Positions 2,688-36,589 of a stretch of 64,000 nt of DNA are shown here, in pieces. This stretch comes from an uncultured Clostridia bacterium (GTDB taxonomy: Bacteria; Bacillota; Clostridia; Oscillospirales; CAG-272), in NCBI GenBank assembly GCA_944383705.1, contig CALWQR010000001.1:18718-82717 (forward strand), in the 5' to 3' direction. A program made the position numbers and the translations under genes. The number at the start of each line of letters is the position of its first letter. Position 1 is the first letter of the stretch. Under the pieces are notes generated by a model. It did not search any database. It saw only the letters and a program-made list of their open reading frames with translations, and had not been told where the DNA came from.

Positions 2688-3713
2688 TTATGTATAGGTA
2701 CCGGTCTGAATCTTGCGGATGAACTCTTCCAGCAAGGTCTCCATCCGGTCGGCCGACGGGCCGAACTGCGACCACTCCTTTCCGTCCCGCAGGTAGGCGC
2801 CGGTATCGTCACAATAGCCGCCGAACTCGCGGGTGTAGATCCGGCCGAAGTCGAAGGCCTCGGTCCGGCGGATCAGCTCCAGCATCTCTGTCATTTCGGG
2901 GCTGGCGCTGGTCTGGTACTGCATGATGCGGCCGAAGACCACCGGGGTGGTGACGCGGTAGCCCGCGCTGGCCAGCGCCTCCAGCACCGCGGTGTTCATC
3001 TCCAGCCGGCCGGCGGGAACCGCGGCCGGAATGCCGAACAGGGAGATGGGCTGCCGCACCGTGCTGTAGTACTGGGTCTGCGCGCTGTCGTACTTCGGTA
3101 CCGGCACACAGCCGTACTCAAAGCTCACGTCCCGCAGATGCGTGGTGGCAATGCCGTGGTGGGCAATCAGCATCAGAGCCTGCTCCGATACAAAGCATCC
3201 GGCCGGGTTGCTGTCCTCCACAAGGGCATGGTCCACCTGCACAAAGTCGGTGAGCTGATCCATCACATCCAATCCCTTCTCACCGTAGGATTCGGGATTG
3301 ACCGTCAGGCTGCCGGTCTCGTCGCGGACGACCCACGGGATATCGCAGCCGTGAAACACGGCCGGCCAATCCCAGTAGGCGCCCACCGTCGGAATCAGGT
3401 CTCCGGCGTCCACCACCTGATTGCGGTTCTCGTCGCTGTAAAAGCCTTTGCCCAGGGCAATCATCCGCTCCAGCGTCCATTCGTCGGCCTCCACCAGGCT
3501 GTACGGGCTCTCCAGCCCATAGTCCTCGAACAGGTCGGCGTTGAAGTATATGCAGTACACCATCTGAATGAAGCTGGGGGAGACGTCGCCGGTCACCGAG
3601 GAGGACGCAGAGCCCTCCCCGGCCCCTTCCCCGCTCTCCCGGCAGGAGAGCAGCAGGGCGGACAGAAGCACCAGCACCGACAGCAGCAGGGACAGCCTTT
3701 GCGTTGCTTTCAT
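2688..3713 (-). CDS. Truncated paralog of a family-1 solute-binding lipoprotein; C-terminal two thirds only, with its own signal peptide
   Basis: Lipoprotein signal LLSALLLSC. From SPSFIQMVYCIYFNADLFEDYGLESPY to the ...FIRKIQTGTYT end it is collinear with 3749..5239. It lacks about 175 aa of the N-terminal lobe. Confidence 0.65.
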   Translation of the reverse strand: MKATQRLSLLLSVLVLLSALLLSCRESGEGAGEGSASSSVTGDVSPSFIQMVYCIYFNADLFEDYGLESPYSLVEADEWTLERMIALGKGFYSDENRNQVVDAGDLIPTVGAYWDWPAVFHGCDIPWVVRDETGSLTVNPESYGEKGLDVMDQLTDFVQVDHALVEDSNPAGCFVSEQALMLIAHHGIATTHLRDVSFEYGCVPVPKYDSAQTQYYSTVRQPISLFGIPAAVPAGRLEMNTAVLEALASAGYRVTTPVVFGRIMQYQTSASPEMTEMLELIRRTEAFDFGRIYTREFGGYCDDTGAYLRDGKEWSQFGPSADRMETLLEEFIRKIQTGTYT

Positions 3714-3748
3714 ATTGCACCCCTTCCTGCGTCGTCGTGTTTTCCGTT

Positions 3749-5239
3749 TTACTGATAGGTACCGGTCTGAATCTTGCGGATGAATTCGTCCAGCAGGGTC
3801 TGCATCTGCTCGGCCTGCGGGCGGAACTCGGTCCAGGGGCGGTTGTCCCGGATGAAGGCGCCGGGCTCGTCGCAGTAGCTGCCCAGATCGCGGGTGTAAA
3901 TGCGGCCGAAATCAAAGATCTGCGTCTCGCGGACCAGGGCCAGCATCTCGGTCATCTCGGGGCTGGCGCTGGTCTGGTACTGCATAATCTTGTCAAAAAC
4001 CACCGGCGTGGTGGTGCGGTAGCCCGCGCTGGCCAGCGCCTCCATCACTGCGGTATCCATTGCCAGCCGGTCGGCAGGCACCGCGCTCGGAATGCCGAAC
4101 ATCGAGATGGGCTGGCGCACCGTGCTGTAGTACTGGCTCTGGGTGCTGTCATATTTGGGCGTGGGCACGCAGCCGTACTCAAAGCTCACCTCGCGGAAAT
4201 TCCGGGAGGCCGTGCCGTGGTGGGCAATCAGCATCAGCGAATTGCCGGCCACAAAGTTCTCGGTGACGCCGTCCCCCACAAACGCGGAGTCCACCTGGAC
4301 AAAATTCAGCAGCTTCTCCATCACGTCCAGGCCCTTTTCCCCGTAGCATTCGGGGTTGACGGTCAGCGTGCCGGTTTCGTCCCGCACAATCCAGGGCACG
4401 TCGCAGCCATGCAGCAGCGCGGGCCAATCCCAGTAGGCGCCCACCATCGGAATCACGTCGGCCGCATCCACCTCCTGGTTGTGGTTCTCATCCTGGTAAA
4501 AGCCCTTGCCCAGGGCAATCATCCGTTCCAGCGTCCATTCGTTGGAAGCCACCAGATCGTAGGGGCTCTCCAGCCCGTAATCCTCGAACAGGTCGGCATT
4601 GAAGTAAATGCAGTACACCATCTGGATGAACAGCGGGGAGATGTCGCCGGTGCACAGGTAAAAGGTATCGCCGATGCTGGTCTCCTCAATCAGGCTCTGG
4701 TTCCACCAGGGCATCTCAAAATCCAGGTAGCTGCCGTCGATGTCGCCCAGGTCCCGGTAGAGCCCGGCAGCCGCGCAAATGGCCGCGGTGCGGGTGTAGG
4801 CGCCGACAAAGTCGAAATAATCGCCCCCGCTGACCACATTCTGCAGGCTTTGCATGAAGTTGTTTTCCTGACTGTTGGAGCCAATAATCACGGTGTACTT
4901 CAGGGTTACGCCCAGCCGATCCTGCACGCTTTCGTCCCGGGTGAAAATCGAGAGGTCGATTTCGTCGGCCGAGCTGCCGTCCGCGCCGAATTCCTGAATG
5001 CCCTCGGTGTCGGTGTTCCAGCCCAGCACCAGAATGTCCTCGTCATAGTTGAGATCTGCCGGCAGGTGATCCTTGAGATAACCGTTGGCATCGTAGTCGC
5101 CATTTCCGGAGTCTCCGGTGGTAGCGGTCGTATCCTGGGGGGTCGTGGGTTCGGGATCCCGCTTACAGGACAGAAGGACCGACGCCGACAGCGCCAGGAC
5201 CAGCATCAGCAGCAGGACGCGGATGAACAGGTGTTTCAT
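3749..5239 (-). CDS. Extracellular solute-binding lipoprotein (large family-1 / LplA-like ABC substrate-binding protein)
   Basis: Signal plus lipobox MKHLFIRVLLLMLVLALSASVLLSC. About 500 aa, the size typical of sugar SBPs. Paralogous to 2688..3713 and to the C-terminal half of 11498..14212. Confidence 0.75.
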   Translation of the reverse strand: MKHLFIRVLLLMLVLALSASVLLSCKRDPEPTTPQDTTATTGDSGNGDYDANGYLKDHLPADLNYDEDILVLGWNTDTEGIQEFGADGSSADEIDLSIFTRDESVQDRLGVTLKYTVIIGSNSQENNFMQSLQNVVSGGDYFDFVGAYTRTAAICAAAGLYRDLGDIDGSYLDFEMPWWNQSLIEETSIGDTFYLCTGDISPLFIQMVYCIYFNADLFEDYGLESPYDLVASNEWTLERMIALGKGFYQDENHNQEVDAADVIPMVGAYWDWPALLHGCDVPWIVRDETGTLTVNPECYGEKGLDVMEKLLNFVQVDSAFVGDGVTENFVAGNSLMLIAHHGTASRNFREVSFEYGCVPTPKYDSTQSQYYSTVRQPISMFGIPSAVPADRLAMDTAVMEALASAGYRTTTPVVFDKIMQYQTSASPEMTEMLALVRETQIFDFGRIYTRDLGSYCDEPGAFIRDNRPWTEFRPQAEQMQTLLDEFIRKIQTGTYQ

Positions 5240-7338: not shown

Positions 7339-8163
7339 TTATTTTTTGCGCAGGCGGCCGATGACACGGCCCCGGCACTGCACGTCGGAGAAATCCGACA
7401 GCGGAATCGGACTGTAGGCGGGATTGAGCGACAGCAGCCGGCTGCCTCCGTAAATTTTGAAGTAGCCGCAGCCGTCCAGCAGGAAAATACCGGGCTCGCC
7501 GATTTCCACGCTGTCGGTGGTCTGCACCAGCAGCACGTCGCCGTTGTGATATCTGGGCTCCATGCTGTCCCCGCTGATGCGCAGGGCATAGTCGGCCTCG
7601 GCGGTCGCATCGGTCCGCGGAATGCGGATGGTTTCGGCACGGGCATCCTCCAGGTATTCCCCGACGCCAGCCGACACCGGCAGATCGTACAGCGGGATGC
7701 TCCGCTTGCCGTCCTTGGCGCCGCCGGCATAGCGCCCGCTGCCGGCGCCCGCAGGCATGTGCAGGATGCGCGCCGGACGCACCGGCGGCGCCGGCTCCCG
7801 CCCGGACGGGGCGGCCGACGAGCCGCGCACGGCGTCCACCCGCTCGGTCTCCTTGGCCAGTACGGTTCCCACCAGCCCCTGCCCCCAGCCGTCCAGGCGG
7901 CGGTAGGCCTCCACCAGAGCAATCTCCTCTTCGGTCAGTGTGTAGTTGTTGGTGTTTTCGGGTGTTCCGGTCACAATGTACTCCACCGTGCAGTCCAGCG
8001 CGTTGCAGATGGCAACGATGTTGGAAAGCTTGGGAGACTCGCTCATCCCGGCGAGCAGCTTGCTCAGGGTCCCCAGCGGAATGCCCGAGCGCTCGGCCAG
8101 CTGCTCGTTGGTCATCTTTTTCTGCCCCTTGATTTGTTTGATGCGATCGATATAGCTTTCCAT
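7339..8163 (-). CDS. XRE-family HTH repressor fused to an S24 (LexA/CI-like) self-cleaving peptidase domain
   Basis: N-terminal HTH MTNEQLAERSGIPLGTLSKLLAG. Pro/Ala-rich linker. S24 motifs PVSAGVGEYL (Ala-Gly site), SGDSMEP (Ser) and YFKIY (Lys). Confidence 0.8.
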   Translation of the reverse strand: MESYIDRIKQIKGQKKMTNEQLAERSGIPLGTLSKLLAGMSESPKLSNIVAICNALDCTVEYIVTGTPENTNNYTLTEEEIALVEAYRRLDGWGQGLVGTVLAKETERVDAVRGSSAAPSGREPAPPVRPARILHMPAGAGSGRYAGGAKDGKRSIPLYDLPVSAGVGEYLEDARAETIRIPRTDATAEADYALRISGDSMEPRYHNGDVLLVQTTDSVEIGEPGIFLLDGCGYFKIYGGSRLLSLNPAYSPIPLSDFSDVQCRGRVIGRLRKK

Positions 8164-8195
8164 CCGCGGCCTCCGTTTTTTCCGATTGTGGCACT

Positions 8196-8224
8196 ATTAT
8201 ACCACATTCCTCCCGTTTTGTAAA
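8196..8224 (-). promoter_or_regulatory. Promoter of the XRE-S24 gene (TTTACA-17-TATAAT)
   Basis: Minus-strand TTTACA at 8224-8219 and TATAAT at 8201-8196, with a 17-nt spacer. Confidence 0.55.
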
Positions 8225-8265
8225 GAGGATTTGCAAAATTATTTTCTTTTTTCGGAAAAAACCTC

Positions 8266-8294
8266 TTGACAAACGCCGCGTGATCTGCTATAAT
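8266..8294 (+). promoter_or_regulatory. Perfect consensus promoter (TTGACA-17-TATAAT) divergent from the repressor gene
   Basis: TTGACA at 8266-8271 and TATAAT at 8289-8294, with a 17-nt spacer. Confidence 0.65.
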
Positions 8295-8336
8295 ATCATC
8301 AGAATTATTCCAAATTCGATATGAAAGAGGCAGATT

Positions 8337-8669
8337 ATGAACAGAACGGACGTCAGGAACGGCAATTTTGATTCCGGATTCGGAACCGGCATTGGGCGGA
8401 TATACCCGGGCGCCGGCCTGCCGGAGCGCGGCCGGCCCGGCCGCGGGCAGGCTCTGCGGAGCCGTGCGGCAGCCATCCGGCGGGCCCTGTGCGGCGGGGC
8501 CGTCCGGCGGCTGGCCAGAGCCGGCGGCGTGGTGCTGGCTCTGCTCGGCATGATCGGAGCCGCGGGCGCGATGGAAAGAGGCACGCTGCCGCTGGGCGCC
8601 GGACTGCTGATTTGCGCGGCCCTGCTGGGAGTGGAGTTCCTCTGCCTGCGCACCCGAAAGCCGGAGTAA
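8337..8669 (+). CDS. Hypothetical small membrane protein (Arg/Gly-rich N-terminus, two C-terminal hydrophobic segments)
   Basis: ATG preceded by AAGAGG at 6 nt and by the consensus promoter. Hydrophobic stretches VVLALLGMIGAAGA and GAGLLICAALLGVEFLCL. No recognisable family. Confidence 0.45.
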   Translation: MNRTDVRNGNFDSGFGTGIGRIYPGAGLPERGRPGRGQALRSRAAAIRRALCGGAVRRLARAGGVVLALLGMIGAAGAMERGTLPLGAGLLICAALLGVEFLCLRTRKPE

Positions 8670-8699
8670 ACCGACCCGCGCCAGCCGGTGCTCCGCCCC

Positions 8700-9080
8700 T
8701 TCCCGCCCCACTGCCCCGCGCGGTTGATGTGGGGCTTTCTGCCCGTTGTCCTGTGCAGTTGATGGGGGAATCCCGCCCCATTCTACCGCGCGGCCGATGG
8801 AGGATGCCTGCCCGTTGTCCCGTGCAGTTAATGGGGGAATCCCGCCCCATTCTACCGCGCAGCCGATGGGGGATTCCTGCCTGTTGTCCCGTGCAGTTGA
8901 TGGGGGAATCCCGCCCCATTCTACCGTGCAGCCAATGGGGATTCCTGCCTGTTGTTCCGCACGACCGATGGAGGATTCCCGCCTGTTACCCCACATAGTT
9001 GACCGAGGGATTCCCTGCCTGTTGTCCTACGTGGTTGACTGGAGGAAATCTCCGCCTGTTGTTTTGCGCGGTTGAGAACT
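8700..9080. repeat. Degenerate tandem repeat array: 69-bp period built from two ~34-35-bp half-units, about 11 half-units in total
   Basis: CTGCC(C/T)GTTGTCC starts recur at 8739, 8808, 8877 and 8945. Half-unit consensus is about CYGCCYNTTGTNCCGYGCRGYYGATGGRGGAWTC. Three near-identical full units are followed by decaying half-units out to about 9075. Confidence 0.85.
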
Positions 9081-9263
9081 TCCCTGCACCTCCCCCGCTA
9101 CCAATGAAATGACCGCGGGCACGCCCCCTTCAGACGGGCACAGAAGCCAACAGACAGAGGTGCCTCTCACTACGGGACCCACCAGCAAAAAGCCGGTTCC
9201 CCGTGCGCCGGCGGGATGCCAAAGCCAACGGAATTGCATTCCTCCATCAATACCACCACCCTC

Positions 9264-9312
9264 ATACAAAAGCCCGCCCCGGATGCGCTTTGCACATCCG
9301 GGGCGGGGCTGC
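9264..9312 (-). terminator. Palindromic repeat copy 1; rho-independent terminator of gene 9373..11433
   Basis: CCCGCCCCGGATGCGC-TTT-GCACATCCGGGGCGGGG. On the minus strand the single mismatch becomes a G-U pair and the stem is followed by CTTTTG. The same ~40-bp core recurs at 18707-18746. Confidence 0.75.
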
Positions 9313-9372
9313 TGTATGTGTCTGCCGGGCAGGAGGCAGCCGATCAGATTTTTTCTCCGGGGGGGGCTCCGT

Positions 9373-11433
9373 CTACTCCAGTTCGATGGTCACCTCACCG
9401 TCCTTGGCCACATACAGGAACCGGATGATTCCCTGCTCCTGAAGCTGAAGGATGACTTTGGATGTAGGATAACCGGTAACGGTATCCCAGCGGGACTGCT
9501 CCACCGGCCACAGGGCAATCTCCGGCAGTACAGCATTGTAAATTTCCACCGAGCCGCCGTTCCAGCCGTGGTGCGCCACCTGAAGGATATCGCTTTTCAG
9601 CTCACTGCCATATAGACCGTATATGACCTTGACCCCGCTGTCGCGCGCAGCCACAGTACTGACATCGGCCAGAAACAGGATGCGCTGACCGGCAATATTG
9701 ACACGGAACACCGTGGAGGTATCGTTCATATCGGTCAGAACATACGGGTGAAGGGTCTCATGCGTGTACAGAATTTCGACCTCTGCATTGCGGACCCAGA
9801 AACGCTGTCCGGCATGAACCTTGTACACACTGACATCGGAATACTTTGCAAAAGAAGAGAGCATCGCACTGTAATACGAACCGATTCCCTCAAATTCGCA
9901 TGGATCTGCAAAGTTCCAGTAAACCGCCTCCAACGTAACCATGCCTGCATATCTGACCGTAAAATCCAGGTAATTGGTCACATGGTCATAGTGCTCATGC
10001 GTGAACAGCCAACCTGCAATGACAATCTGCCCGTCCGCGCGTTTGTTGTGCGCCCGAAGATAGTTATACAGAACGGTTTCATCTTCTCCGGCACTGCCGC
10101 CGCCATCGATGATGAAAAAGCTCCCATCCTCCAGAGTGAAAATGTACCCCATACCGAAATTGCCGGCCTCATCATCCAGACTGAGTTGCCCCAGCGTACT
10201 GGCAGTGATTGCTTCGGTTTCGGTATAGGAAGCGGCAGGCAACGCAGCCGCGGTTTCCGATGTCACCCGCAAGCTGCCGTCCCATGGAAAATAGCTGACA
10301 GATACCGCTCGGTTTTCCTGTGTATATACGGCAAACAGATTATTGCCGATGCGATTGGTCTGATATTCGGAAAATCCGGCGTCTTTGAGCCGGCCGAGAT
10401 AAGCTTCAAAGTCCGAAGCAACCGCGCCGGTGTAAACGGCGGTCAGCGTATCGTTCAGCCCACGGTAGGCCGAGGATAGTGTCAGCGCCGGCTCCGGCAG
10501 ATTCTCAAAATCCGGGCGTATGCTCCCCTGCTCCGATGCAAAAGCCGGAATGCTGATCTCTCCCCCGGATTGGTTTCTTTCCAGAATATCCAGAAAAGCC
10601 TCTACCGCCTGCCCGATGCCCGCCAGCGACCAGGCGTTGAGGATAATCCGATTACCGGAGCAGGCCACAACATAGCCGTCCGGCGGTACTCCCTCGAGAG
10701 CCGCAGCGGACTCGGGACGGTTGGTGTGCCCCAGCAGGATCTCACAGGCCTGTGGGTCGGTCGCGTCGGTAAAGGTATCCAGATCTACGGAAGGCGCCGC
10801 GCCGGAATATTCCCGGATGCTTTCCCGCAGCTGCATTCCCAAATCAATGGTATAATCCGATGAATTGGTCTGCCGGATGATGGTATAATCGGTTTTCCCG
10901 TTGGCTGCCAGCGTCAGCAGGCGGTACGGATCGCTGAACACCGGAGCGTTCAACTGTACCGTTGGCGTAGCGCTGCCCTGCAGCAAATGTTCGACAAAAT
11001 AGGCAACGGCATCGGACAGAAAGCCGTCCCGTGTGGCGGCAATCACCACCTTGTGCTCGGTGAAGCTGATGGCATACCCCTCCCCGATGATTTGTGAGAG
11101 CAGGTCCGCGCTCTCGGCGCGGTTGGTGTTGCCAATCAGGATTTCTCTGGCGGTCGGATCATACTCCCCCTCCCGGTACCAGTCATCGCTGACCTCCGGC
11201 GTCACGCCGATACCGATCAGTGCGCTGCGCAGCTCAGCTACGGCTGCCAGGCAATCCTGCGAGGTGCTCTCGGGCCGAACAATGCAATACTCCGATAAAT
11301 TCACCGTAGCCATCAAAGCATCCCCGGGGTTCTCCCGGTCCGATTGACAGGACGGCAGCAAAGCCCCCAGTATCAACAGCAGCGCCAGCAGTCCAAAGAC
11401 CGGATGAAGACGTTGTTTGCGCTTCAATTGCAT
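9373..11433 (-). CDS. Lipoprotein with duplicated N-terminal module and a C-terminal ComEC/Rec2-type MBL-fold metallo-hydrolase domain
   Basis: True start MQLKRKQRLHPVFGLLALLLILGALLPSC (ATG 11433; a TTG 6 nt downstream is also possible). Two related ~110-aa modules (..EILIGNTNRAES.. / ..EILLGHTNRPES..). MBL motifs FTHEHYDHV and LQVAHHGWNGGS. Confidence 0.75.
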   Translation of the reverse strand: MQLKRKQRLHPVFGLLALLLILGALLPSCQSDRENPGDALMATVNLSEYCIVRPESTSQDCLAAVAELRSALIGIGVTPEVSDDWYREGEYDPTAREILIGNTNRAESADLLSQIIGEGYAISFTEHKVVIAATRDGFLSDAVAYFVEHLLQGSATPTVQLNAPVFSDPYRLLTLAANGKTDYTIIRQTNSSDYTIDLGMQLRESIREYSGAAPSVDLDTFTDATDPQACEILLGHTNRPESAAALEGVPPDGYVVACSGNRIILNAWSLAGIGQAVEAFLDILERNQSGGEISIPAFASEQGSIRPDFENLPEPALTLSSAYRGLNDTLTAVYTGAVASDFEAYLGRLKDAGFSEYQTNRIGNNLFAVYTQENRAVSVSYFPWDGSLRVTSETAAALPAASYTETEAITASTLGQLSLDDEAGNFGMGYIFTLEDGSFFIIDGGGSAGEDETVLYNYLRAHNKRADGQIVIAGWLFTHEHYDHVTNYLDFTVRYAGMVTLEAVYWNFADPCEFEGIGSYYSAMLSSFAKYSDVSVYKVHAGQRFWVRNAEVEILYTHETLHPYVLTDMNDTSTVFRVNIAGQRILFLADVSTVAARDSGVKVIYGLYGSELKSDILQVAHHGWNGGSVEIYNAVLPEIALWPVEQSRWDTVTGYPTSKVILQLQEQGIIRFLYVAKDGEVTIELE

Positions 11434-11497
11434 CCTCCTTCCATAGTCCCGCGGGCAAAAGCCCGCGGGAAAGAACCAAGCAAGCGACGTTGGCCTG

Positions 11498-14212
11498 TTA
11501 TTGCTTTTGCTGGTCAAAATCGGCCAGCAAATCATCGAGCTTTTCTTCAATGGTGCCGCCAAACACCCGATAAATGCTGCCGAGATTAGCCGAAGCCGCC
11601 TGATTGTATCCGGCCAGCATATTGCGGATCTTGTGCAGCGGGTCCTCAATGGAAGCCCCGTACAGTGAGCCGAAATCGTACGCGATGGAATCGATAATCA
11701 TATCAAACAGTTCACCTGTGATGTCAGAGCTGGCGTAACGGACCTTGTAGGCCAGTTCATGATAGACCGGGCGTACATCCCGATAGGAGTACTCGGACAT
11801 CACCTCCAGCGTAGCAGTTGCCAATCCGAGATCTGCGCCGATGTTATAGGGCATAGAAACAATGCTGTAGGCATCCTGCGGCGTGGTGGCATAGCCTTCC
11901 TGCCCGGAGTTCAGCTTGGGCAGAGGAAGAATGCCATAGTGCAACGTGACATCGGTGGCAAATGTCTTTGCCGATTCCAACAGACCGAATTCCAGCATAC
12001 AACGACCGTTATAAAACACCTCATCCGAAAAATAGTTTGTAGTGGTGCCATAATACTCGTCGTTGGCTGTAGTACCGCGGTACAAGCCATCGCTTTGATA
12101 TATGAAGTCAAACAGCTCGGAAAAGGCATTGGTATACTGCGGCTCCTGAAAAGCCACCTGAATGTTGCCGTCCGCGGTCTTTTCCACCAGCGGAATCCCT
12201 ACCGCCATCAACATCGCATCAACGCACATCGACCCATTGTTGAATACCATCCCGTACAGGTCGCCCCCGCTTTGCTCACCATCGCGGTCAACATCATCGT
12301 ACACATCGTGAATCAGCTCCTGCACATATTCCAGGGTCCAGTTTCCATCCCGCACCACGGCGTACAGATCGCTCAATCCGTTGGTATAATCGGGATGATA
12401 GTCACCAAACAGGTCCTCGTTGAAAAAGGTCACAACCGAACGGTCGGTTGCCGTCAGCGTCACATCCCCCACAATAAAGTACAGCAGACCGTTGTAGCTG
12501 CACTCCTGTACAAAGGACTGATTGTACCAGGGCAGCTCGGTGGAAATATAATTGGCGGAATCGACGGTATTGAGATTGTAATAGAGGTTTTCGGCCGCCA
12601 ATGCCGAGCCGTAATAAGCATAGGTGGTGATGATATCGTAATACGGGCCGCCCATAATGGAGGTGCGCACGGTATTGAGGTACTCGGTAGATGCGTTGGT
12701 GCTGTTGGAGACAAAGTCCAGAGTCACACCCAGGCGGGCCTGCACGTTCTCGTTTCTTTCAAACACCTCATTGTCAATCAGGGCACCCGAGTATTCGGCG
12801 TCAAATTCCTCCTTGAAGTCTTCCCGGATCAGGATACTGACCGTTTCTCCGGGAAACATCAGGTCATCCGGAACCTTGGATTCCGGCATGGGCTCACCAC
12901 TCTCCGCGGACGTCTGCGCAGGAGAGGTCGGGCCCCCCTGCCCGCTGTCGCCTCCGCTGTTCCGGACCGCTGCCGAAATACCGACAATACACCCGACAAG
13001 AATCGCCAAAGCCAGCACACCGGCCACAATTCGGACCACCAGTTTGCCAATGCGCACAATGACCACAACGGCCGCGGCCACGGCAGCAATCATGACAATT
13101 GCCAGCACCACAATCAGAACCGTGTTGGGCTTTTGCGGCTCGGCGGGCGTCTCCCCGTTGCCGGAGAGTTCCCCGGTAGGGGTCGGCGGCACTGTGGTGA
13201 CCTCATCGGAGGGCTCCTCGGTCGGCTGCGGCCCCTCTCCCGTATCCGCATCCGTCTCCTCACCGGAGGGATCGTCCCCGCCGGGATCATCCGGCTGCAG
13301 TGTGGAGGGGATGCTCATGTCATATTCCGGAACGTTCCCTTCTGCGTCGGCCAGCGCCAGCACCGGATAACCGCCAAAATCGGAATTGCCCTGGGAGAGA
13401 GCAAAATTTTTGTAAGCATCCGTGTAATTGTAAAAATACATCTTGCCGTTTTCCAGATAATTTCCAATGGAAATGCGGAAGCTCATCTGGTACCCGGCCT
13501 CGGGTGCAAATACCGGATATCGCTCCTGAATGCAGCTCCAAGGAATGGCTATCTCCATCTGCCAGCCATCGTCGGTCAGCGCTGCGGCGCATTGCACACC
13601 CTCGGGCAGGTCCACATAGCTTTTGGCCGAGAGAGTGGGGTAGGTCATGCGCAGCTGAATCGCGCCGTTTGGCTGAGCCCCGTCATCGGCCAGCGTGGTA
13701 TAAAACTGCCAGATGTCCCCGTCCGCCTCACTCAGACAGAGAGATTCCAGCGGCTGAATGCCAAAAATGGCGCCTTCTGCTTTGGACCACGGCAGTGCGG
13801 CAGAGGTGCCGCCGGGGGTGGCAGGCGATTCGTAATAAACAAAATCGTCCACCCGGCTGTCCAGAATATACAACGCGTTTTCGTCCCACAGGAAACGGAG
13901 CGTTGCCTTGTTTCCCTCAGGCCATGCCTTGGTCTCATCGGTGCAAAGTCCGCCGTATTCGGTCAGAACTGCCTGCAGCTCGGGGTCGGCAGGGTCATAG
14001 ACCAGCACAGAGGCGTTCTGCCATTCTTCATCGGTTACGCTACCGTCAACGGTCGGAGCGGTCTCGGTATACACCGCGGTCCACTGAACATCGGTCAGCC
14101 AATAATCCTCAATTGTAGGGGACGCTTCCTCTGCCGATACCGGCAGAAGCGCCAGCGCGGTCAGCAGAACCGCAAGCAGCAGGGTCAGACAGCTTGATTT
14201 TCTATGTTTCAT
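11498..14212 (-). CDS. Surface protein: signal peptide, CBM9-like domain, acidic/Pro-rich linker, two hydrophobic helices, then a solute-binding-protein domain
   Basis: MKHRKSSCLTLLLAVLLTALALLPVSA. CBM9-like APTVDGSVTDEEWQNAS..ATLRFLWDENALYILD. VLIVVLAIVMIAAVAAAVVVIV-RIGKLVVR-IVAGVLALAILVGC. The C-terminal half aligns with SBP 3749..5239 (NENVQARLGVTLDF, ELPWYNQSF, FFNEDLFGDY). Confidence 0.8.
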   Translation of the reverse strand: MKHRKSSCLTLLLAVLLTALALLPVSAEEASPTIEDYWLTDVQWTAVYTETAPTVDGSVTDEEWQNASVLVYDPADPELQAVLTEYGGLCTDETKAWPEGNKATLRFLWDENALYILDSRVDDFVYYESPATPGGTSAALPWSKAEGAIFGIQPLESLCLSEADGDIWQFYTTLADDGAQPNGAIQLRMTYPTLSAKSYVDLPEGVQCAAALTDDGWQMEIAIPWSCIQERYPVFAPEAGYQMSFRISIGNYLENGKMYFYNYTDAYKNFALSQGNSDFGGYPVLALADAEGNVPEYDMSIPSTLQPDDPGGDDPSGEETDADTGEGPQPTEEPSDEVTTVPPTPTGELSGNGETPAEPQKPNTVLIVVLAIVMIAAVAAAVVVIVRIGKLVVRIVAGVLALAILVGCIVGISAAVRNSGGDSGQGGPTSPAQTSAESGEPMPESKVPDDLMFPGETVSILIREDFKEEFDAEYSGALIDNEVFERNENVQARLGVTLDFVSNSTNASTEYLNTVRTSIMGGPYYDIITTYAYYGSALAAENLYYNLNTVDSANYISTELPWYNQSFVQECSYNGLLYFIVGDVTLTATDRSVVTFFNEDLFGDYHPDYTNGLSDLYAVVRDGNWTLEYVQELIHDVYDDVDRDGEQSGGDLYGMVFNNGSMCVDAMLMAVGIPLVEKTADGNIQVAFQEPQYTNAFSELFDFIYQSDGLYRGTTANDEYYGTTTNYFSDEVFYNGRCMLEFGLLESAKTFATDVTLHYGILPLPKLNSGQEGYATTPQDAYSIVSMPYNIGADLGLATATLEVMSEYSYRDVRPVYHELAYKVRYASSDITGELFDMIIDSIAYDFGSLYGASIEDPLHKIRNMLAGYNQAASANLGSIYRVFGGTIEEKLDDLLADFDQQKQ

Positions 14213-14245
14213 GATTCATCCTTTCCCAGGCTATGCCTGTGTTCA

Positions 14246-15427
14246 TCAGAGTTCAACCGAAATGTCATCCTCCCAGGCGATGTGAAACCGTCTCTTTTGC
14301 GCAGTCATTTCCTGTACCATCACCTGTGTGGCAGGAAAGCTCTGGATGCGCTCCCAGTCCCGCTTCCGCAGCGGCCACAGCACATCCGGCGCGTTCACAA
14401 ACGGATAAAATGCAAGTGCCTCGGTATCCCAGCCATGGTGCGCAGCCTGATACCAGTCGCTTTTGAGATAGTCGCCATAACGCCCGGCCAACATACGGCA
14501 AGCCTTGCCGCAGCTCAGGTCGGCCGGAAAAAAGAGTTTTTTGCCCCGGACGGTAACCAATGTCACCATGGAGCAGTCGTTCATAGCGAGCGGGCCGTGC
14601 GGATAAAGATCCTCGTGTGTGTACAGTATTTCCACACTGGCCGTCCCCACGGTAAAGCGCTGCCCTGTGTGCGGTTTGTAAACCGCCGCTTGCGGCAGAT
14701 GCGTATGCAGCTCGTTGAGCCATAGCCCGCGGGCGGTGGCCAGACTGCCGATTTCCCGATACTGAATCGGAACCGAAAGTGATGGAAAATTGTACAGCAG
14801 ACAGCGCACATCGGTCATGCCGCCGTATTTTTTTGCAAACTGTACGGGGCCGGATACATGATCCCAATGCGGATGGGTCAGGATCCAGGCATCCACCACC
14901 GGCCGCTCACCGGGCGGCGTATCCCGGCAGAGGCACTGCCATAGCCGATCGTGATCGTTGCCGGCGTCCCCGTTGCCGTCGTAAATCAGGAAATGGCCCT
15001 GACCGAGTGAAAACACATAGCACATGCCGAAGTTTGCCGCCGTATCATCCGGACAGACCTGTGTCAGGGTGACTCCTGCGGATTCGGTCGGAGCATCTCC
15101 CAATCGCTCCGGCATGGGCCCCCCCTGGCAGTAAAGCACCCGCAGGGAGTGCTCCGAGGGAAAGCAGCCAAGGACGGTATAAACCTCCTTGCCGTCCTGC
15201 CAGGACGAAAAGCAGCAAAAGAGATTTCCGGCAGCCGAGCGCTCCCACAGCAGTTCTCCACCGGCAAGCAGCTCCTGTCGCAGCTGTCCGTATTCGGTCG
15301 GGCCGCCAGGCAGTACGGTTGCAAATACACCGTCGCCGCAGTCGTATACCGGTCGTTCCCGCAAGCGCGAGAGCTGCCGCACCGTGGCCAGCAGACGGCG
15401 ATATCCATTGATTGCATTGCGTTGCAT
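14246..15427 (-). CDS. ComEC/Rec2-type MBL-fold metallo-hydrolase (no signal peptide seen), paralog of the C-terminal half of 9373..11433
   Basis: Motifs ILTHPHWDHVSG and YQAAHHGWDTEA, plus shared blocks ANFGMCYVF / GNFGMGYIF and VEILYTHE in both. The start is ambiguous: ATG 15427 (MQRNAING) or TTG 15511. Confidence 0.75.
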   Translation of the reverse strand: MQRNAINGYRRLLATVRQLSRLRERPVYDCGDGVFATVLPGGPTEYGQLRQELLAGGELLWERSAAGNLFCCFSSWQDGKEVYTVLGCFPSEHSLRVLYCQGGPMPERLGDAPTESAGVTLTQVCPDDTAANFGMCYVFSLGQGHFLIYDGNGDAGNDHDRLWQCLCRDTPPGERPVVDAWILTHPHWDHVSGPVQFAKKYGGMTDVRCLLYNFPSLSVPIQYREIGSLATARGLWLNELHTHLPQAAVYKPHTGQRFTVGTASVEILYTHEDLYPHGPLAMNDCSMVTLVTVRGKKLFFPADLSCGKACRMLAGRYGDYLKSDWYQAAHHGWDTEALAFYPFVNAPDVLWPLRKRDWERIQSFPATQVMVQEMTAQKRRFHIAWEDDISVEL

Positions 15428-15519
15428 AGCCAAGCCTTTCTGTATCCGATAAAATTTCCGATAATACCGGACGGAACGCAGGGCAGCCGCCCCGTCCGGC
15501 AGAGCAATCAAAGCCTGAA

Positions 15520-15648
15520 TCAGGTAAACTCCTGTCCGCCAAGATCAAATTCCAGTCCGGAGCCCCCCTTCGTGACACTGATGGTCAGCAAATCGGAATC
15601 CGGCAGAAATTCCAGTTTCAATTCGGGCTGAAAATATATGTTTTTCAT
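15520..15648 (-). CDS. Candidate 42-aa small protein
   Basis: My translation: MKNIYFQPELKLEFLPDSDLLTISVTKGGSGLEFDLGGQEFT. ATG 15648 is preceded by GGAGGG at 6 nt. TGA stop at 15522..15520. It fills the gap between two operon genes. Below the ORF-track length cutoff. Confidence 0.4.
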   Translation of the reverse strand: MKNIYFQPELKLEFLPDSDLLTISVTKGGSGLEFDLGGQEFT

Positions 15649-15660
15649 CGCTTTCCCTCC

Positions 15661-18333
15661 TTATTCCACAAGAACACCGTCCGTAACCGTCAGACAACAG
15701 CCACTATCCAGACATTCATTGCCGGCAGCATCTGCCAGAAAGGCCCGAAGATAGATGCGGTAGGTGCCATCGGCCGGAATATTTGTCACAGTCAGCGCGC
15801 AGAGATAATCGGCTCCCAGCTGCTGGGCCGTTACGGACTCCATTCCTCTATCTGTATCTGCCAGAAGCGAGGTGTACACCGTGCTTCCGGCAATCCGCCC
15901 GGATACGGCCTTGCCGTCCTCGCGCACCACACGAAGATAAAATCCGACCTCGGTATACTCCTCCAGCGTTTTCCCTCCCAGGTCAACGGTACTGACCACG
16001 CGCAGCCGGGTACTGTCGCCGGCCGGAGCCGTAGGTTCCTGCACAAAAGCGGTTTCCGCCAGGGTTGGACGGAGCATCTCCGCCACACCGGCGGGAACTG
16101 CCAAACCTTCTGTCATGGTCCAGCCGATCAATGCCGGCAAATCCATCAGTTCGGTGGTTTCGGTCAAAGACCGGATCAACGAAGAGTGATTGGTTGTTGT
16201 GGAGGTATTGCTGTCCATTGCAGCCGAGCCGGTCTGCACTCCGTCATAGGTGACCGTAAGCGCGTAGTAGTTGTGCCAGGCGATCAGAGCATTGGCATTG
16301 GTCCCGGTGAGATAGTAAGTATCGGCAATCGATATTCTGGCCTGCTCGGTGCGGCTGTTGCATTCCAGATAGACCAGCGATCCCGAAAACCCATCCGTAC
16401 TGGGCACTGTGCGGGCATTGTAACAGCGGTTGAGGGTCAGATGCCCGCGGTTGAGCCCGACCAGTCCGCCATTGTGATTGGAAGTAGCCAGAATCTCCCC
16501 GTAATTGGCACAGTCTGAAAGTGTCAGTTCGGAAGAAGGGCTGTTTTCATCTGTTGCAAGGCTGTTGACGTTCCCGACGATTCCGCCAACCCCTGCCGAG
16601 CCCGAGACGGTACCATTGAATACCACGCTCTGCATTTCTGCCACGCCATAATAACAGCCGCCCAGAATACCACCGATGCAGTCGATTGCTGTGCCGTCGG
16701 TTTTTCTTCCTTCCACAATGGCCTCACTGTAGAGATTGCGGAACAACGACGGCTCCTCCCCACTGACCGAGCTGGCAATGCTGCCGATATAGTTCTTGGA
16801 AGTGGACAGAATGTAGGAATTGGTCATCCGGAAATTCTGAACGGTTGCCCCTACCAGTTTGACCAGCAATGCTGAACCGGAGCTTTCCTGATTGACGTAC
16901 ACGCCCGAGAGCGTGTAGCCGTCCCCGTCCAGTACGCCGCGAAATTCAACAATCGGAACCCACACACGCGCCGGGGCGGATTTGGTGGCCGCGTCCCATC
17001 CCGGATTGAGATCCACATCGCCGTTCATTCGCACAGTCAAGCCTTCATAATAGCCATAAGCGGCCGCATACGCGGCAAAATCGAACCAGTCATCGGCATC
17101 GGAAAGGTGAATGACGCCCGCGCCATCCTGCTCCAGCGGCAGAACCAGCTGTTCCATACCGGGCTTAGTAGCCAGCACGGGGAGTGTGGTCACTGTCTGA
17201 ATCACCCCCTTGGCATTGTCCCATGTTGTGGTTTTGTCGGCAAATGTCAAACGATCGGTCTCGCCTCCGGTATAGGACACCGTGACGTCAAAGCGGTTCC
17301 GCGATCCATGCAGGCCAATGCCGTGCTTCAGAACTGCCGCATCCGAGGTATAACAATCTGTGAACCGCACGGCAGCAACGGTTGTGGGGGTATTGGTTTC
17401 GGAATTGTTCTTTGTAATGGTCTTCCGATCCAAATAGGCAAGTCCTCCGCTCCACTGATTGTTTCCGGTGGAAATGGCCCCAAGGTTGGCACAGGCAATC
17501 AACTCGGCATCCGCGGCAATACGGCCGATCATCCCTCCCGCCTCGGTGCCAACGCTGTCTCCGCGCTGAGTCCGAACTGTGCCGTAATTGACGCAGCGCC
17601 GCAGGGTTGCCTTGTACTCGTTGCTGGTGCCGAGAATGCCTCCCACCATCACGCCGCCGCTCACCGTTCCGGAAAAGCTACAGTCGGTAAACTCGGCGTC
17701 TGCCCCGTATAATACGCCGCAGATTCCCCCAGCCACCTGCGAATATCCGGTTTCCGGAGTTTCGGTTTCAATCACAACATTGCTGTGTATATTCTCAAAC
17801 ACACACCGGTTATTGCTGACCGATGCCATCACACCGCCGCTGTAATCACCCGCGGACCAGATGTAACTGTTTTCGATACGCAAATCACGTATGATGCAGC
17901 CGTCCCCGCGCCAGATAAAGCCCTGGTTGCCTGCTCCGTTGAGATACAGACCGGAGATTGTGTAGCCCTGCCCGTCAAAGGTTCCCTTAAAGCGACTGAC
18001 CGGCGTCCAGACCCGCCCCCCGGCGGGCGCTGTCCTGGTAGCCGCATCCCAGCCGGGATTGAGATTCACGTTGCACATCAAGCGCACGGTCTGACTGTTG
18101 AAGCAGTCCAACCCGTTTGAGTCATCGGCACAGGCTGCGGCAAACGCAAACAGGTCATCGACCGAATCGATTTCCCATACCCCATCGCCGTTCGGGTCGC
18201 CCCATTCCTCTGCCGACAGGTCCGGAACGGGCAGAGCCGAGAGTGGCAGCACCCCCATGCTGCCGATGAGTATGGCCACCAGCAGAACGATTGCCAACAG
18301 CCGGACGGAACATTGGTTTTGGTGTGTCTTCAT
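15661..18333 (-). CDS. Secreted GLUG-motif / beta-helix repeat surface protein with an internal duplication
   Basis: Signal peptide VRLLAIVLLVAILIGSMGVLPLSA. Two ~400-aa repeats each carry NLNPGWDAAT..F(K/R)G(T/V)(F/L)DG(Q/D)GYT(I/L)SG(L/V)Y(L/V)N followed by GGI.G-type turns. C-terminal Ig-like domain. Confidence 0.75.
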   Translation of the reverse strand: MKTHQNQCSVRLLAIVLLVAILIGSMGVLPLSALPVPDLSAEEWGDPNGDGVWEIDSVDDLFAFAAACADDSNGLDCFNSQTVRLMCNVNLNPGWDAATRTAPAGGRVWTPVSRFKGTFDGQGYTISGLYLNGAGNQGFIWRGDGCIIRDLRIENSYIWSAGDYSGGVMASVSNNRCVFENIHSNVVIETETPETGYSQVAGGICGVLYGADAEFTDCSFSGTVSGGVMVGGILGTSNEYKATLRRCVNYGTVRTQRGDSVGTEAGGMIGRIAADAELIACANLGAISTGNNQWSGGLAYLDRKTITKNNSETNTPTTVAAVRFTDCYTSDAAVLKHGIGLHGSRNRFDVTVSYTGGETDRLTFADKTTTWDNAKGVIQTVTTLPVLATKPGMEQLVLPLEQDGAGVIHLSDADDWFDFAAYAAAYGYYEGLTVRMNGDVDLNPGWDAATKSAPARVWVPIVEFRGVLDGDGYTLSGVYVNQESSGSALLVKLVGATVQNFRMTNSYILSTSKNYIGSIASSVSGEEPSLFRNLYSEAIVEGRKTDGTAIDCIGGILGGCYYGVAEMQSVVFNGTVSGSAGVGGIVGNVNSLATDENSPSSELTLSDCANYGEILATSNHNGGLVGLNRGHLTLNRCYNARTVPSTDGFSGSLVYLECNSRTEQARISIADTYYLTGTNANALIAWHNYYALTVTYDGVQTGSAAMDSNTSTTTNHSSLIRSLTETTELMDLPALIGWTMTEGLAVPAGVAEMLRPTLAETAFVQEPTAPAGDSTRLRVVSTVDLGGKTLEEYTEVGFYLRVVREDGKAVSGRIAGSTVYTSLLADTDRGMESVTAQQLGADYLCALTVTNIPADGTYRIYLRAFLADAAGNECLDSGCCLTVTDGVLVE

Positions 18334-18702: not shown

Positions 18703-18748
18703 ACAGCCCCGCCCCGGATGCGCTTTGCACATCCGGGGCGGGGCTGTA
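18703..18748 (-). terminator. Palindromic repeat copy 2; probable terminator of the thioesterase gene / T-box operon
   Basis: CCCCGCCCCGGATGCGCTTTGCACATCCGGGGCGGGGCTG has the same core and orientation as 9273-9311. It lies 120 nt downstream of the stop at 18867. The minus-strand T-tract is weak (CTGTTCTG). Confidence 0.6.
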
Positions 18749-25133: not shown

Positions 25134-25445
25134 TGGTAAAATCTCCTTTTGTTCAGAGCCGCAGAGAATACAAAAAATCCCCTGCGCAGATTCGCAGAGG
25201 ACGATGGGAACACCGCGGTACCACCTCTGTTGCCGGGGACACCCCCGGCCACTCGGATAGCGGACAGACAACTGCCGCGTCTGTGCTGTAACGGGCATAC
25301 CCGGCGCAGCCTACAGGGGCCACCGCCCGTTCGGTGCGCAACTCGCGGAATGTATTCGGAACGCCACTGCCACTGCCTCGCACCGCCCGGCAGCTCTCTG
25401 CGCGCCCGGGACGCCCCTACTTGTTTCCGGTCAGCATCTTTCTTT
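25134..25445 (-). promoter_or_regulatory. T-box riboswitch leader with candidate specifier codon UAC (Tyr)
   Basis: Minus-strand elements in canonical order:
- K-turn UGA..CGAG.
- Specifier-loop 5' side AGUA (25421-25418).
- AG bay AGAGAG (25399-25394).
- Distal hairpin CUGCC-GGGCGGUGCGA-GGCAG.
- Specifier-loop 3' side GAA-UAC-A (25357-25351), flanked by helices GGGGCG/CGUUCC and CGGAA/UUCCG.
- F-box CCGUUA (25294-25289).
- Stem III GCCGGGG-GUGU-CCCCGGC.
- T-box GGUGGUACCGCG (25225-25214).
- Antiterminator AGAGG[UGGUACC]GCGGUG..CAUCGU CCUCU.
- Competing terminator CCUCUGCG..GCGCAGGGG plus U6 (25200-25172). Confidence 0.85.
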
Positions 25446-27494: not shown

Positions 27495-28772
27495 TTATGC
27501 CCTGGGCTTGCCGCATTCCGGACAGAACTTGGTGCCGTCCGGGTTCCTGTGCCCGCACCCGGGGCAGGTCCACTCGCCGGCCGGGCGCGGGCTGCCGCAC
27601 TCGGAACAGAATTTGCCGGTGTTGCCGTGCCCGCACTTGGCGCACTTCCACTCACCGGCCGGCTCCGGCCGGGGCTTGCCGCACTCGGAGCAGAATTTGC
27701 CGGTGTTGCTGTGCCCGCAGGCGCACACCCAGCTCCCCGCTGCCGGAGCGGCCTGGGCGGCCTGGGCCTGCTGCCGCTGCATCTGTGCCTGGTTGGCCGC
27801 CGAGGCGCTGGCGGCAAAATTGCCGCCGGCCCCCATGCCAAGACCGATGCCCATAAAGGCCTGCGCGCTGCCGGCCGTGTTGCTGCCGGCGCTCTCGATG
27901 CCCCTGGCGATAGCCCCCTGCACATATCCCTCGCGCACCGAGGGGTCGCCCAGCATGGCGCCCTGGTTGCGCAGGTTGATCAGCTTCTGGGATTCCTCGT
28001 CATAGCTGATGCCCTTGATGCCGACCGCCAGCACCTCAAACCCGCGCAGCTTCTTCCAGCTCTCGTCCAGCGCATCGGCCAGATAGCGGGAGAGCTCGGG
28101 CGCGTGGGAGATGATCTGCGAGATGCGGATGTTGTCCACCGACATCCGGTTGAGCGAGGCCTGGAAGGCCTCGAGAAACTCGGACAGATACTGCTCGTTG
28201 ATGTCGTTGATGTCCACGCGCGCCGCGTTTTTGGGGATGACCTCGGCATAAAACCGCAGCGGATCGGTCACCTTGATGGAATAGGTCCCGTGCGCGCGCA
28301 GGAAGAGCTCGCTGTTATAAAAATTATCGAAATAGTTGACCGGGCTGGGGGTGCCGAAGCGGATGCCCTTGATTTCCTGCAGGTTGATATAAAACGCCTG
28401 CTGCTTGGCCGAGGGCGTGCCCCCGTATTTGATGCGGTTGAAGGCATCCTTGAGCGAATCCCCGAACTGCCCGTTGAACAGTGAGGGCGTGGAGGAATTT
28501 TTGACGATGTAATAGCCCTCCTCCGCCGTGTAGTCCACAATTTTTCCGCCGTCCACCAGCATCATGAACTGATTGGGGTAAACGTGGATCACCGAGCCGT
28601 CGCTGATGATGTCGCTGTTGCCCTTGCGGTTGTTGTTGCGCCGGTCGGTGCGCACCTTGACCCCTTTGGTGAAGACGGTGGAGTCGTCCATCGCGTCGGC
28701 CTCCAGCACCTCCTGCCATTGGTCGGCAAGATTGCCGCCGACCGCATCGAAAAACGCCTTGACAATGCCCAT
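27495..28772 (-). CDS. SPFH-domain / virion-core-like protein (YdjI-like) with three C-terminal zinc-ribbon repeats
   Basis: True start MGIVKAFFDAVGGNLADQWQE (ATG 28772). The C-terminus carries 3x W.C..CGH.N.GKFC.ECG.PR. The track's N-terminal 90 aa extension has no support. Confidence 0.75.
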   Translation of the reverse strand: MGIVKAFFDAVGGNLADQWQEVLEADAMDDSTVFTKGVKVRTDRRNNNRKGNSDIISDGSVIHVYPNQFMMLVDGGKIVDYTAEEGYYIVKNSSTPSLFNGQFGDSLKDAFNRIKYGGTPSAKQQAFYINLQEIKGIRFGTPSPVNYFDNFYNSELFLRAHGTYSIKVTDPLRFYAEVIPKNAARVDINDINEQYLSEFLEAFQASLNRMSVDNIRISQIISHAPELSRYLADALDESWKKLRGFEVLAVGIKGISYDEESQKLINLRNQGAMLGDPSVREGYVQGAIARGIESAGSNTAGSAQAFMGIGLGMGAGGNFAASASAANQAQMQRQQAQAAQAAPAAGSWVCACGHSNTGKFCSECGKPRPEPAGEWKCAKCGHGNTGKFCSECGSPRPAGEWTCPGCGHRNPDGTKFCPECGKPRA

Positions 28773-35393: not shown

Positions 35394-36589
35394 TGTATAC
35401 GCTCTTACTTGCCGTCATTTATCTCGCATTCGTCAGTCTCGGCCTGCCCGATTCGCTGCTGGGCTCGGCCTGGCCGGTCATGCAACAGTCCTTTGCCGTG
35501 CCGCTCTCCTACGCCGGGGTGGTCACCATGATCATCTCGGGCTGCACCATCCTCTCCAGCCTCTGCTCGGAACGCATGACCCACCGTCTGGGCACCCGGG
35601 CCGTGACCGTGGCCAGCGTGCTGCTCACCGCGGTGTCGCTGCTCGGCTTTTCGATGTCCTCCGCCTTCTGGATGCTCTGCCTCTGGGCCGTTCCCTATGG
35701 CCTGGGCGCCGGGGCTATCGACGCCGCGCTGAACAATTATGTCGCCCTGCACTATTCCTCCCGGCAGATGAGCTGGCTGCACTGCTTCTGGGGCGTTGGC
35801 ACCATCATCAGTCCCTATATCATGAGCCACTCGCTCACACATGCCGGCTGGCAGAGCGGCTACCGCACGGTGGCCCTGATTCAGTTCTGCATCCTGGGGG
35901 TGCTGCTGCTCACGCTGCCGCTCTGGAAGGCAAACCGTCCGGCCGACGGCGCGGCCGATTCCCAGGGCGAGGTGCTGGGGCTGCGGCGGGTTTTGCGGAT
36001 CCGCGGCGTGCCCTTTCTGCTGACCGGCTTTTTTGCCTACTGCGCGGCCGAATCGACCGTGGGACTGTGGGCCAGCAGCTATCTGGTTGGTGTGCGGCAG
36101 GTGTCCGAGGAGCTGGCCGCCGCCTTCGGCTCGCTGTTCTACATCGGCATCACGGCCGGGCGCTTTCTCTCCGGGCTGGTCTCGGACCGGCTGGGCGACC
36201 GGCGCCTGATCCGCATCGGCGCAGGCGTCGGCGCGGTCGGCATCCTCTGCCTGCTGCTGCCGCTCCCCTCCGATTGGCCCGCCCTGTGCGGACTGGTGGT
36301 CATCGGGCTGGGGTTTGCGCCCATATACCCCTGCATCATCCATTCCACCCCGCATAATTTCGGGGCGAAAAATTCCCAGGCCATCATCGGCATCCAGATG
36401 GCCAGCGCCTATATCGGCTCCACCTTCATACCCCCGCTGTTCGGTCTTGCCGCCAACCACGTCAGCATCCGGCTGCTCCCCATCTTCCTCATCGTTTTCG
36501 TCCTCCTGATGGTATTCATGCTGGAGCAAACCAACCGCACGGTGGGGGATGGATACCTGGAGGAAAAGACCTTGGAGAGACCCGCCTAG
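35393..36589 (+). CDS. MFS transporter
   Basis: About 12 predicted hydrophobic segments. Start overlaps the upstream stop. The last ~8 codons (EEKTLERPA) and the stop lie inside the left terminus of the mosaic repeat. Confidence 0.8.
   Translation: MYTLLLAVIYLAFVSLGLPDSLLGSAWPVMQQSFAVPLSYAGVVTMIISGCTILSSLCSERMTHRLGTRAVTVASVLLTAVSLLGFSMSSAFWMLCLWAVPYGLGAGAIDAALNNYVALHYSSRQMSWLHCFWGVGTIISPYIMSHSLTHAGWQSGYRTVALIQFCILGVLLLTLPLWKANRPADGAADSQGEVLGLRRVLRIRGVPFLLTGFFAYCAAESTVGLWASSYLVGVRQVSEELAAAFGSLFYIGITAGRFLSGLVSDRLGDRRLIRIGAGVGAVGILCLLLPLPSDWPALCGLVVIGLGFAPIYPCIIHSTPHNFGAKNSQAIIGIQMASAYIGSTFIPPLFGLAANHVSIRLLPIFLIVFVLLMVFMLEQTNRTVGDGYLEEKTLERPA

Follow-up and report, generated by a model that had tools for sequence, protein, structure and literature searches.

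A 69-bp tandem array between two convergent genes of an uncultured Clostridia bacterium: probably a lineage-specific, hypervariable minisatellite of higher-order structure

The array that we describe lies inside a 704-bp gap separating two convergent genes, in a stretch of 64,000 nucleotides that was analysed as a whole and that is called the window hereafter. On its left stands a small gene preceded by a perfect consensus promoter, both of which the original prediction had placed upstream of the array and both of which are present; 46 bp separate the stop codon of this small ORF from the first base of the array. The gene of an XRE-S24 regulator is read divergently from the small ORF, and on the right the intergenic region is bounded by the terminator of a metallo-beta-lactamase-fold gene. 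The features of the locus are the following.

7339-8163, minus strand: XRE-S24 regulator (HTH_3 and Peptidase_S24), divergent from the small ORF
8266-8294, plus strand: sigma-70-type consensus promoter, TTGACA-17-TG-n-TATAAT, with 12 of 12 consensus positions plus the TG; would drive the small ORF
8337-8669, plus strand: small gene, 110 aa, hydrophobic C-terminal region, GC3 0.81, gene-like codon-position GC
8715-8749, plus strand: half-unit 1, the 5' edge of the array; A-like, diverged, 69-77% identical to the other A units (E 4e-5)
8750-8955, plus strand: homogenised core of three B-A dimers of 69, 69 and 68 bp, the strain-variable part
8762-8781, plus strand: hairpin ATGGGG-GAATCCCG-CCCCAT in the first B unit, repeated at 8831-8850 and 8900-8919
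8956-9062, plus strand: three degenerate monomers (33, 37 and 37 bp), 57-76% identical to the core units
9063-9089, plus strand: decayed terminal partial unit, ~50% identical, not significant against the unit profile
9273-9307, minus strand: strong intrinsic terminator of the metallo-beta-lactamase-fold gene, bounding the 704-bp intergenic region
9373-11427, minus strand: metallo-beta-lactamase-fold gene, 684 aa, convergent

The XRE-S24 family is large in Clostridia: the 120 best of 1924 homologues are 62-75% identical to the regulator, and some homologues carry the labels Ruminococcaceae or Clostridia MAGs. The small ORF is kept beside the XRE-S24 gene in relatives, with an identity of 36-52%, and the pair formed by the regulator and a divergent gene of ~108 aa is conserved across many Clostridia. 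The small product of this pair is hydrophobic in its C-terminal region and carries a C-terminal E-x-LCL motif that does not vary, and near-consensus promoters face both ways between the two genes. The layout recalls that of lexA-yneA in Bacillus subtilis, which we take to associate LexA with an SOS-induced small membrane division inhibitor. No link was found between the XRE-S24 regulator and the array.

The original prediction also set the array at the border of a low-GC island. The array does adjoin a block of lower GC, extending from ~9000 to ~19000, and the contrast is modest (~0.61-0.67 outside, 0.53-0.59 inside). An exact 39-bp direct repeat, at 9273-9311 and 18708-18746, brackets 9.4 kb of this lower-GC DNA (55-57% GC), which consists of four large minus-strand genes (9373-18333), and beyond the repeat the flanks are unrelated in sequence at both copies. 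This repeat is the GC-rich hairpin CCCGCCCCGGATGCGCTTTGCACATCCGGGGCGGGGCTG; the metallo-beta-lactamase-fold gene has the left copy as its terminator, and the repeat could be either a duplicated terminator or a target duplication generated by the insertion of the block. The idea that the array is a subterminal repeat of a mobile island was rejected, because no matching direct or inverted array is found at the other border (18.4-18.8 kb).

A profile HMM of the unit recognises in the 64-kb window ten significant half-units of 33-37 bp each, arranged head-to-tail from 8715 to 9062 (E from 4e-7 to 6e-4). The run of Tandem Repeats Finder (TRF) that had been proposed as a check returns a period of 69 bp at 8730-8959 (3.4 copies, 90% matches, score 365), together with shorter periods of 34 bp at 8715-9027 (9.1 copies) and of 36 bp at 8973-9062. 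The two methods bear out a tandem array with a 69-bp period and half-units of ~35 bp. In a repeat search, 69-bp copies begin at 8739, 8808 and 8877, with identities of 100, 93 and 87%; these three starts had been correctly placed, and the fourth, predicted at 8945, is actually at 8946 because the third unit is effectively 68 bp long.

When the array is split manually, the half-units measure, in order, 35, 35, 34, 35, 34, 35, 33, 33, 37 and 37 bp and are followed by a 27-bp stub. The even-numbered core units, or type B (...GATGGGGGAATCCCGCCCCATTCT), share a mutual identity of 94-97%, and the odd-numbered units, or type A (...GATGGGGGATTCCTGCCTGTTGT), one of 82-91%, as against 63-71% between A and B; units 8-10 are 57-76% identical to the remaining units, and the stub is ~50% identical. 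The alternation of A and B thus results in three 69-bp dimers, 87-93% identical, which are followed by older, degenerate monomers. All units have a direct orientation (57-97% identity when compared directly, 35-65% when compared as reverse complements), and the best-kept positions, degenerate units included, are the GGAWTCC core and the flanking GATGG and GCC. In 100 shuffled versions of the window the unit patterns never occur, whereas the real sequence has 3 and 6 matches, and neither these patterns nor the unit profile find any further copy elsewhere in the 64-kb window.

Frames are open on both strands across the array, as had been announced, and the resulting ORFs of 109-294 aa include the GGIPPHSTA peptide. 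Such ORFs would be expected if the array encoded a repeat protein or were the remnant of one, the 23-codon period keeping four of the six frames open and indels of 69 bp preserving the frame. However, the GC content is flat, with 0.60-0.62 at all codon positions in all six frames of the array, whereas the neighbouring genes have a GC3 of 0.65-0.83; the half-units of 33-37 bp push the repeat peptide out of register; three array ORFs have no match in Pfam; the gene callers leave the gap empty in all 11 contigs that cross it; and the longest array ORFs share sequence with the real small ORF, with the promoter region, or with both. On the flat codon-position GC, the lack of a Pfam match and the lack of gene calls, the repeat-protein gene was rejected as a candidate and appears to us scarcely credible, and the same three observations agree with the original view that the array ORFs are artefacts.

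The array resembles a CRISPR in that its ~69-bp period can be read as a 35-bp repeat and a 34-bp 'spacer', and in that the B unit carries a small palindrome. Unlike those of a CRISPR, the 'spacers', which are the A units, are 82-91% identical to one another and 63-71% identical to the 'repeats'. The genes called within ~6 kb on each side code only for AraC, IU_nuc_hydro, SBP, metallo-beta-lactamase-fold and unannotated proteins, and no Cas-related Pfam family is among them. A CRISPR was thus rejected for want of unique spacers, of Cas-related neighbours and of a match to the CRISPR-DR families of Rfam, and the earlier statement that the array is not a CRISPR and has no unique spacers holds, the intervening segments being themselves repeats.

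An exact look-up of the XRE-S24 protein plus two cluster mates (>90% identical) yielded 13 contigs from independent metagenome assemblies and one NCBI MAG (GCA_949294025.1), and the gene order is identical in all the same-species contigs. The 11 complete arrays, on contigs that span the whole array, represent at least nine alleles. Seven arrays, that of the window counted, have ten half-units and occur in six sequence versions, and three have eight half-units, each with a different make-up; in addition, runs of N interrupt the array in two scaffolds and two contigs break off within it, because the repeat disrupts short-read assembly. The comparison of copy numbers between strains, suggested at the outset, thus gave arrays of eight or ten half-units, and the forecast of a hypervariable minisatellite usable for strain typing agrees with these data. 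The flanking coding DNA differs from that of the window by 0-1.2%, and since the array nevertheless has so many alleles, it changes much faster than its surroundings.

The differences in array length between strains occur in 69-bp steps only. One allele (L012) is the ten-unit allele minus one u05-u06 dimer; another (L108) contains a chimera, u16, that starts as u03 (5' end) and finishes as u05 (3' end) and is situated exactly at the missing dimer (a 69-bp loss); and in units u14, u18 and u21 the sequence is a mosaic of neighbouring types. Dimers of 69 bp are gained and lost whole in the core, whose units also exchange segments. As the copy numbers come from short-read metagenome assemblies, in which 69-bp repeats can collapse or mis-join, the unit sequences are safer evidence than the copy counts. 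The number of degenerate units is constant at three across strains, with a few point changes in L107 and L108, and the degenerate 3' units of eight loci are identical to those of the window (0/134). This constancy could hint at a constraint, but the change expected in these units at this divergence is only ~1 per pair, and those of L107 and L108 have in fact changed.

Outside the species, relatives that possess the same XRE-S24 and small-ORF pair have no array at the locus (L020-L025 and the JGI loci). In L020-L022, where the XRE protein is 73% identical, unique sequence and a 46-nt palindrome come after the small ORF. Unique sequence also lies behind this ORF in L023 and L024, where it is 53% identical, and in L025 (70%) a distance of 7 bp separates it from the end of the next gene. 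An alignment of 30 XRE-S24 homologues, used to scan the JGI metagenomes, returned 80 loci, ~25 of which (L026-L050) hold a whole XRE gene of 47-69% identity. TRF detects nothing comparable beside the gene pair in the relatives' loci, and the best hit of the unit profile in 86 related loci, L020-L022 included, has an E of 0.74. The metagenome search for the unit that the original prediction called for was negative, the B-unit pattern having 0 matches in the JGI metagenomes; two scans of viral contigs with the unit patterns also gave 0 matches, and blastn found none in phage and plasmid records. A degenerate two-unit pattern finds nine isolated single matches in GTDB representative genomes, dispersed in unrelated phyla; three of these nine loci reappear in the unit-profile search at E >=3, the other six give nothing, and the matches are chance-like. 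Because neither the relatives' loci nor the database scans show it, the array seems to be young and confined to this lineage, although 'species-specific' may mean a somewhat wider clade, since the nearest sampled relatives are distant (<=75% XRE identity).

These searches also bear on the proposal that the array belongs, as one site among many in this genome, to a dispersed repeat family of the REP/BIME, BOX or MIRU kind, possibly mobilised by a dedicated enzyme. What speaks for it is the palindrome of L020-L022, which contains ATCCCGCCCC, has an inverted second copy ~320 bp on and coincides with contig breaks, and the presence of other repeated intergenic hairpins in the window, such as the 39-bp repeat at 9273 and 18708. 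Yet neither the rest of the 64-kb window nor the 86 related loci contain a copy that the unit profile recognises, the units are direct and do not alternate in orientation (35-65% identity as reverse complements, 57-97% direct), the JGI metagenomes and viral contigs are devoid of matches and those in GTDB representatives are chance-like only; a dispersed family is, in our opinion, improbable.

The palindrome deserves a description of its own. In L020 (reverse complement of 1-499), which with L021 and L022 represents the closest relative sampled on a contig of sufficient length, it is perfect, 46 nt long, of the form GATCCCGCCCCTGCCTGCACC-GAAA-GGTGCAGGCAGGGGCGGGATC, and located just downstream of the small ORF; the second copy in L020-L022 is inverted and slightly different, and the three contigs end, one each, just past the second copy, inside the first and between the two. 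It looks like a dispersed REP-like hairpin in that genome. The derivation of the array from the 5' arm of this terminator-like palindrome was considered on a likeness seen by eye (TTGATGAGATCCCGCCCC in L020, TTGATGGGGGAATCCCGCCCC in the array) and was set aside; we do not claim it because the unit profile finds nothing in L020-L022 at E <=10.

The position of the array behind the small ORF raises the question of its transcription. The promoter at 8266-8294 would also drive read-through into the array, and the small-ORF mRNA probably includes the array as a passively transcribed 3' tail, since this promoter is strong and no convincing plus-strand terminator occurs between the small ORF and the array. 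A functional version of this 3'UTR has been considered, in which the repeats would act on the small-ORF transcript and their copy number would tune the effect; the repeats might serve in mRNA stability, in termination or pausing, or in shielding the convergent metallo-beta-lactamase-fold operon from antisense read-through. The perfect promoter 420 bp upstream, the lack of a strong plus-strand terminator from the ORF stop to the array, a weak terminator-like hairpin with a T-rich tail in unit 10 (9040-9054) and the hairpin of 6-7 bp present in every B unit are all compatible with such a role.

The hairpin itself, however, does not stand up as a meaningful feature. Its three predicted positions are exact, and it folds at -11.1 kcal/mol, but 44 of 200 dinucleotide shuffles fold equally well or better, and in other strains the recombinant units u18 and u21 have a mismatch that breaks it. 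The A unit, the B unit, the dimers and the double dimers, on either strand, have folding z-scores between -0.6 and +1.6 relative to shuffles; the whole 651-nt gap folds at z -2.8 and -4.4, values that are probably owed largely to the terminator at 9273-9307, outside the array. Rfam has no match, CRISPR-DR included, in 8000-9700 with E up to 10, and nothing at the array when the whole window is scanned at the gathering score. A structured non-coding or cis-regulatory RNA was consequently rejected on the lack of an Rfam match, the non-significant z-scores and the broken hairpin, and the structured repeat RNA envisaged in the original prediction is not borne out. Since the relatives with the same gene pair are, moreover, without the array or any analogous repeat, and since strains tolerate eight or ten units and many unit mosaics, a functional repeat 3'UTR is unlikely. 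Two cis-regulatory RNAs lie elsewhere in the window above the Rfam gathering scores: a T-box leader at 25194-25443 and a glmS ribozyme at 47107-47259, both on the minus strand.

Another role for the array would be that of a set of protein-binding sites, whether iteron-like, serving as a decoy or for titration, or nucleoid-organising, with GATGGRGGAWTCC...GCC as the core of the half-unit. The conservation of the GGAWTCC core with GATGG and GCC even in degenerate units, and a transcription factor gene (XRE-S24) 550 bp away, would agree with this role; the recent common descent of the units, however, equally predicts the conservation of the core. Like iterons, the array consists of several direct repeats in non-coding DNA near the gene of a DNA-binding protein. 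Unlike iterons, which measure ~17-22 bp, its units are 35 bp long and are not spaced by whole helical turns: as 34.5 bp correspond to 3.3 turns, the half-unit sites are not phased. It also differs from iterons in being hypervariable between strains and in having no initiator gene and no plasmid or phage context beside it; the called neighbours are AraC, nucleoside hydrolase, solute-binding and metallo-beta-lactamase-fold proteins, no replication initiator is among them, and the BLAST searches of phage and plasmid records are empty.

A candidate operator of the XRE-S24 regulator can be proposed from the window sequence. The near-palindrome TTTTCSGAAAA, which recurs here and at related loci in the interval from the XRE-S24 gene to the small ORF, is found at 8249-8259, just upstream of the -35 element of the small-ORF promoter, and has eight matches in the window with at most one mismatch, as against 0.58 expected, none of them in the array.

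TTTTCSGAAAA matches start at 8249, 10364, 25499, 37851, 41578, 41640, 47047 and 47063

In L038, L049 and L065, A/T-rich repeats of a similar kind are found immediately before the XRE gene. The motif may define the operator of this regulator, possibly with a small regulon. XRE operator sites within the array were rejected, the candidate motif being absent there. With this absence, the unphased spacing, the missing replication gene and relatives that have the same genes without the array, the iteron-like array of the original prediction finds no support, and binding sites of any of these kinds are very unlikely. We also observed that the unit cores GGGGAATCCC and GGGGATTCC, at 8765-8774, 8834-8843 and 8903-8912 and in the A units, fit what we take to be the consensus of the eukaryotic kappa-B site, GGGRNWYYCC; this is most likely a coincidence in GC-rich DNA.

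Variable tandem repeats of intergenic DNA offer a closer comparison. Minisatellites are one class of small variable segments in bacterial genomes (PMC2884548), and the intergenic repeats of 45-60 bp in S. pneumoniae are VNTR loci used in MLVA typing (PMC1315331). We took tandem units, variation between strains and alleles in the register of the unit as the features that define a VNTR, and all three are found in the array: contiguous units within ~10-100 bp without unique sequence between them (TRF and unit profile), copy number and unit composition that vary between strains while the flanks are conserved (in short-read assemblies), and alleles that differ by entire units and have chimeric units at the junctions (L012, and u16 in L108). 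Like intergenic VNTR loci, the array has head-to-tail, non-coding units with ~90% internal identity and degenerate edges, a copy number that depends on the strain, and alleles explicable by slippage or unequal recombination. Unlike a typical VNTR, it is two-tiered, the amplified 69-bp unit being a dimer of diverged monomers of ~35 bp, and unlike the loci of typing schemes it is a single observed locus, in an uncultured, high-GC lineage of gut Clostridia that has no typing scheme.

MIRU of Mycobacterium tuberculosis are intergenic tandem repeats with a variable number of units and many loci per genome. In pneumococcal BOX elements, tandem 45-bp boxB units, internally very similar, are placed between boxA and boxC (PMC1315331). 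The array shares with BOX its intergenic tandem repeats, a similar unit size and a variable number of units per locus; unlike BOX, which is dispersed over many loci with boxA and boxC flanks, it has no second locus in the window and no conserved flanking modules. It differs from REP/BIME, whose palindromic units alternate in orientation, by units that are all direct.

The explanation we favour, and which is probably correct, is that the array is a lineage-specific, hypervariable, non-coding, higher-order intergenic minisatellite (VNTR). An ordinary, fast-evolving minisatellite is most likely because the array is absent from related species. In this model, an ancestral unit of ~35 bp would have been duplicated into an array of monomers, of which units 1 and 8-10 would be the decayed remains. 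Two adjacent monomers would have diverged into types A and B, and the 69-bp B-A dimer would have become the unit of amplification. The dimer gains and losses are what slippage during replication, or unequal homologous recombination between units offset by one dimer, would produce. Judged from its sequence, the array would have no sequence-specific function.

We also considered the more adventurous reading that the array is a recently evolved cis element tunable by copy number, or a multi-site landing pad for a protein recognising GGAWTCC, and we give it little credence. The transcript would originate from the strong, probably damage-inducible promoter of the XRE-S24/small-membrane-protein pair, and a repeat 3'UTR or roadblock would set the antisense read-through into the convergent operon of the metallo-beta-lactamase-fold and carbohydrate-binding proteins. 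If this were true, strains would differ in regulation through gains and losses of 69 bp.

Other repeats were observed in the window. A complex non-coding repeat of ~700 bp is present at 36554-37267 and 44135-45200, ~7.6-7.9 kb apart, in segments that are 78-97% identical and both direct and inverted, with internal tandem repeats of 44 bp (44138-44224) and 21 bp (44505-44556); its first copy lies ~670 bp upstream of two tRNA genes (37933-38120). Long direct repeats at 2694-4567 and 18-2536, with 78-85% identity and distances of ~1.06 kb and 2.2 kb, are probably paralogous genes in tandem, which may encode solute-binding proteins since PF01547 appears faintly for one gene. A very GC-rich 84-bp tandem repeat at 27549-27739 (2.1 copies, 83% matches), unrelated to the 69-bp array, is probably within a gene.

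In conclusion, nothing points to a new mechanism, and the value of the minisatellite that we propose is mostly practical; a new biological question would arise only if its copy number affected the expression of the flanking genes. It constitutes a high-resolution strain marker for an uncultured, high-GC species of gut Clostridia (at least nine alleles in 11 arrays, with flanks that differ by at most ~1%), and the short-read metagenome assemblies of this species document that it breaks contigs and leaves gaps in scaffolds. It also offers a clean and small bacterial case of higher-order repeat evolution, leading from an array of monomers to a diverged dimer and to the amplification of this dimer, in which the chimeric junction units reveal the register of the exchange.
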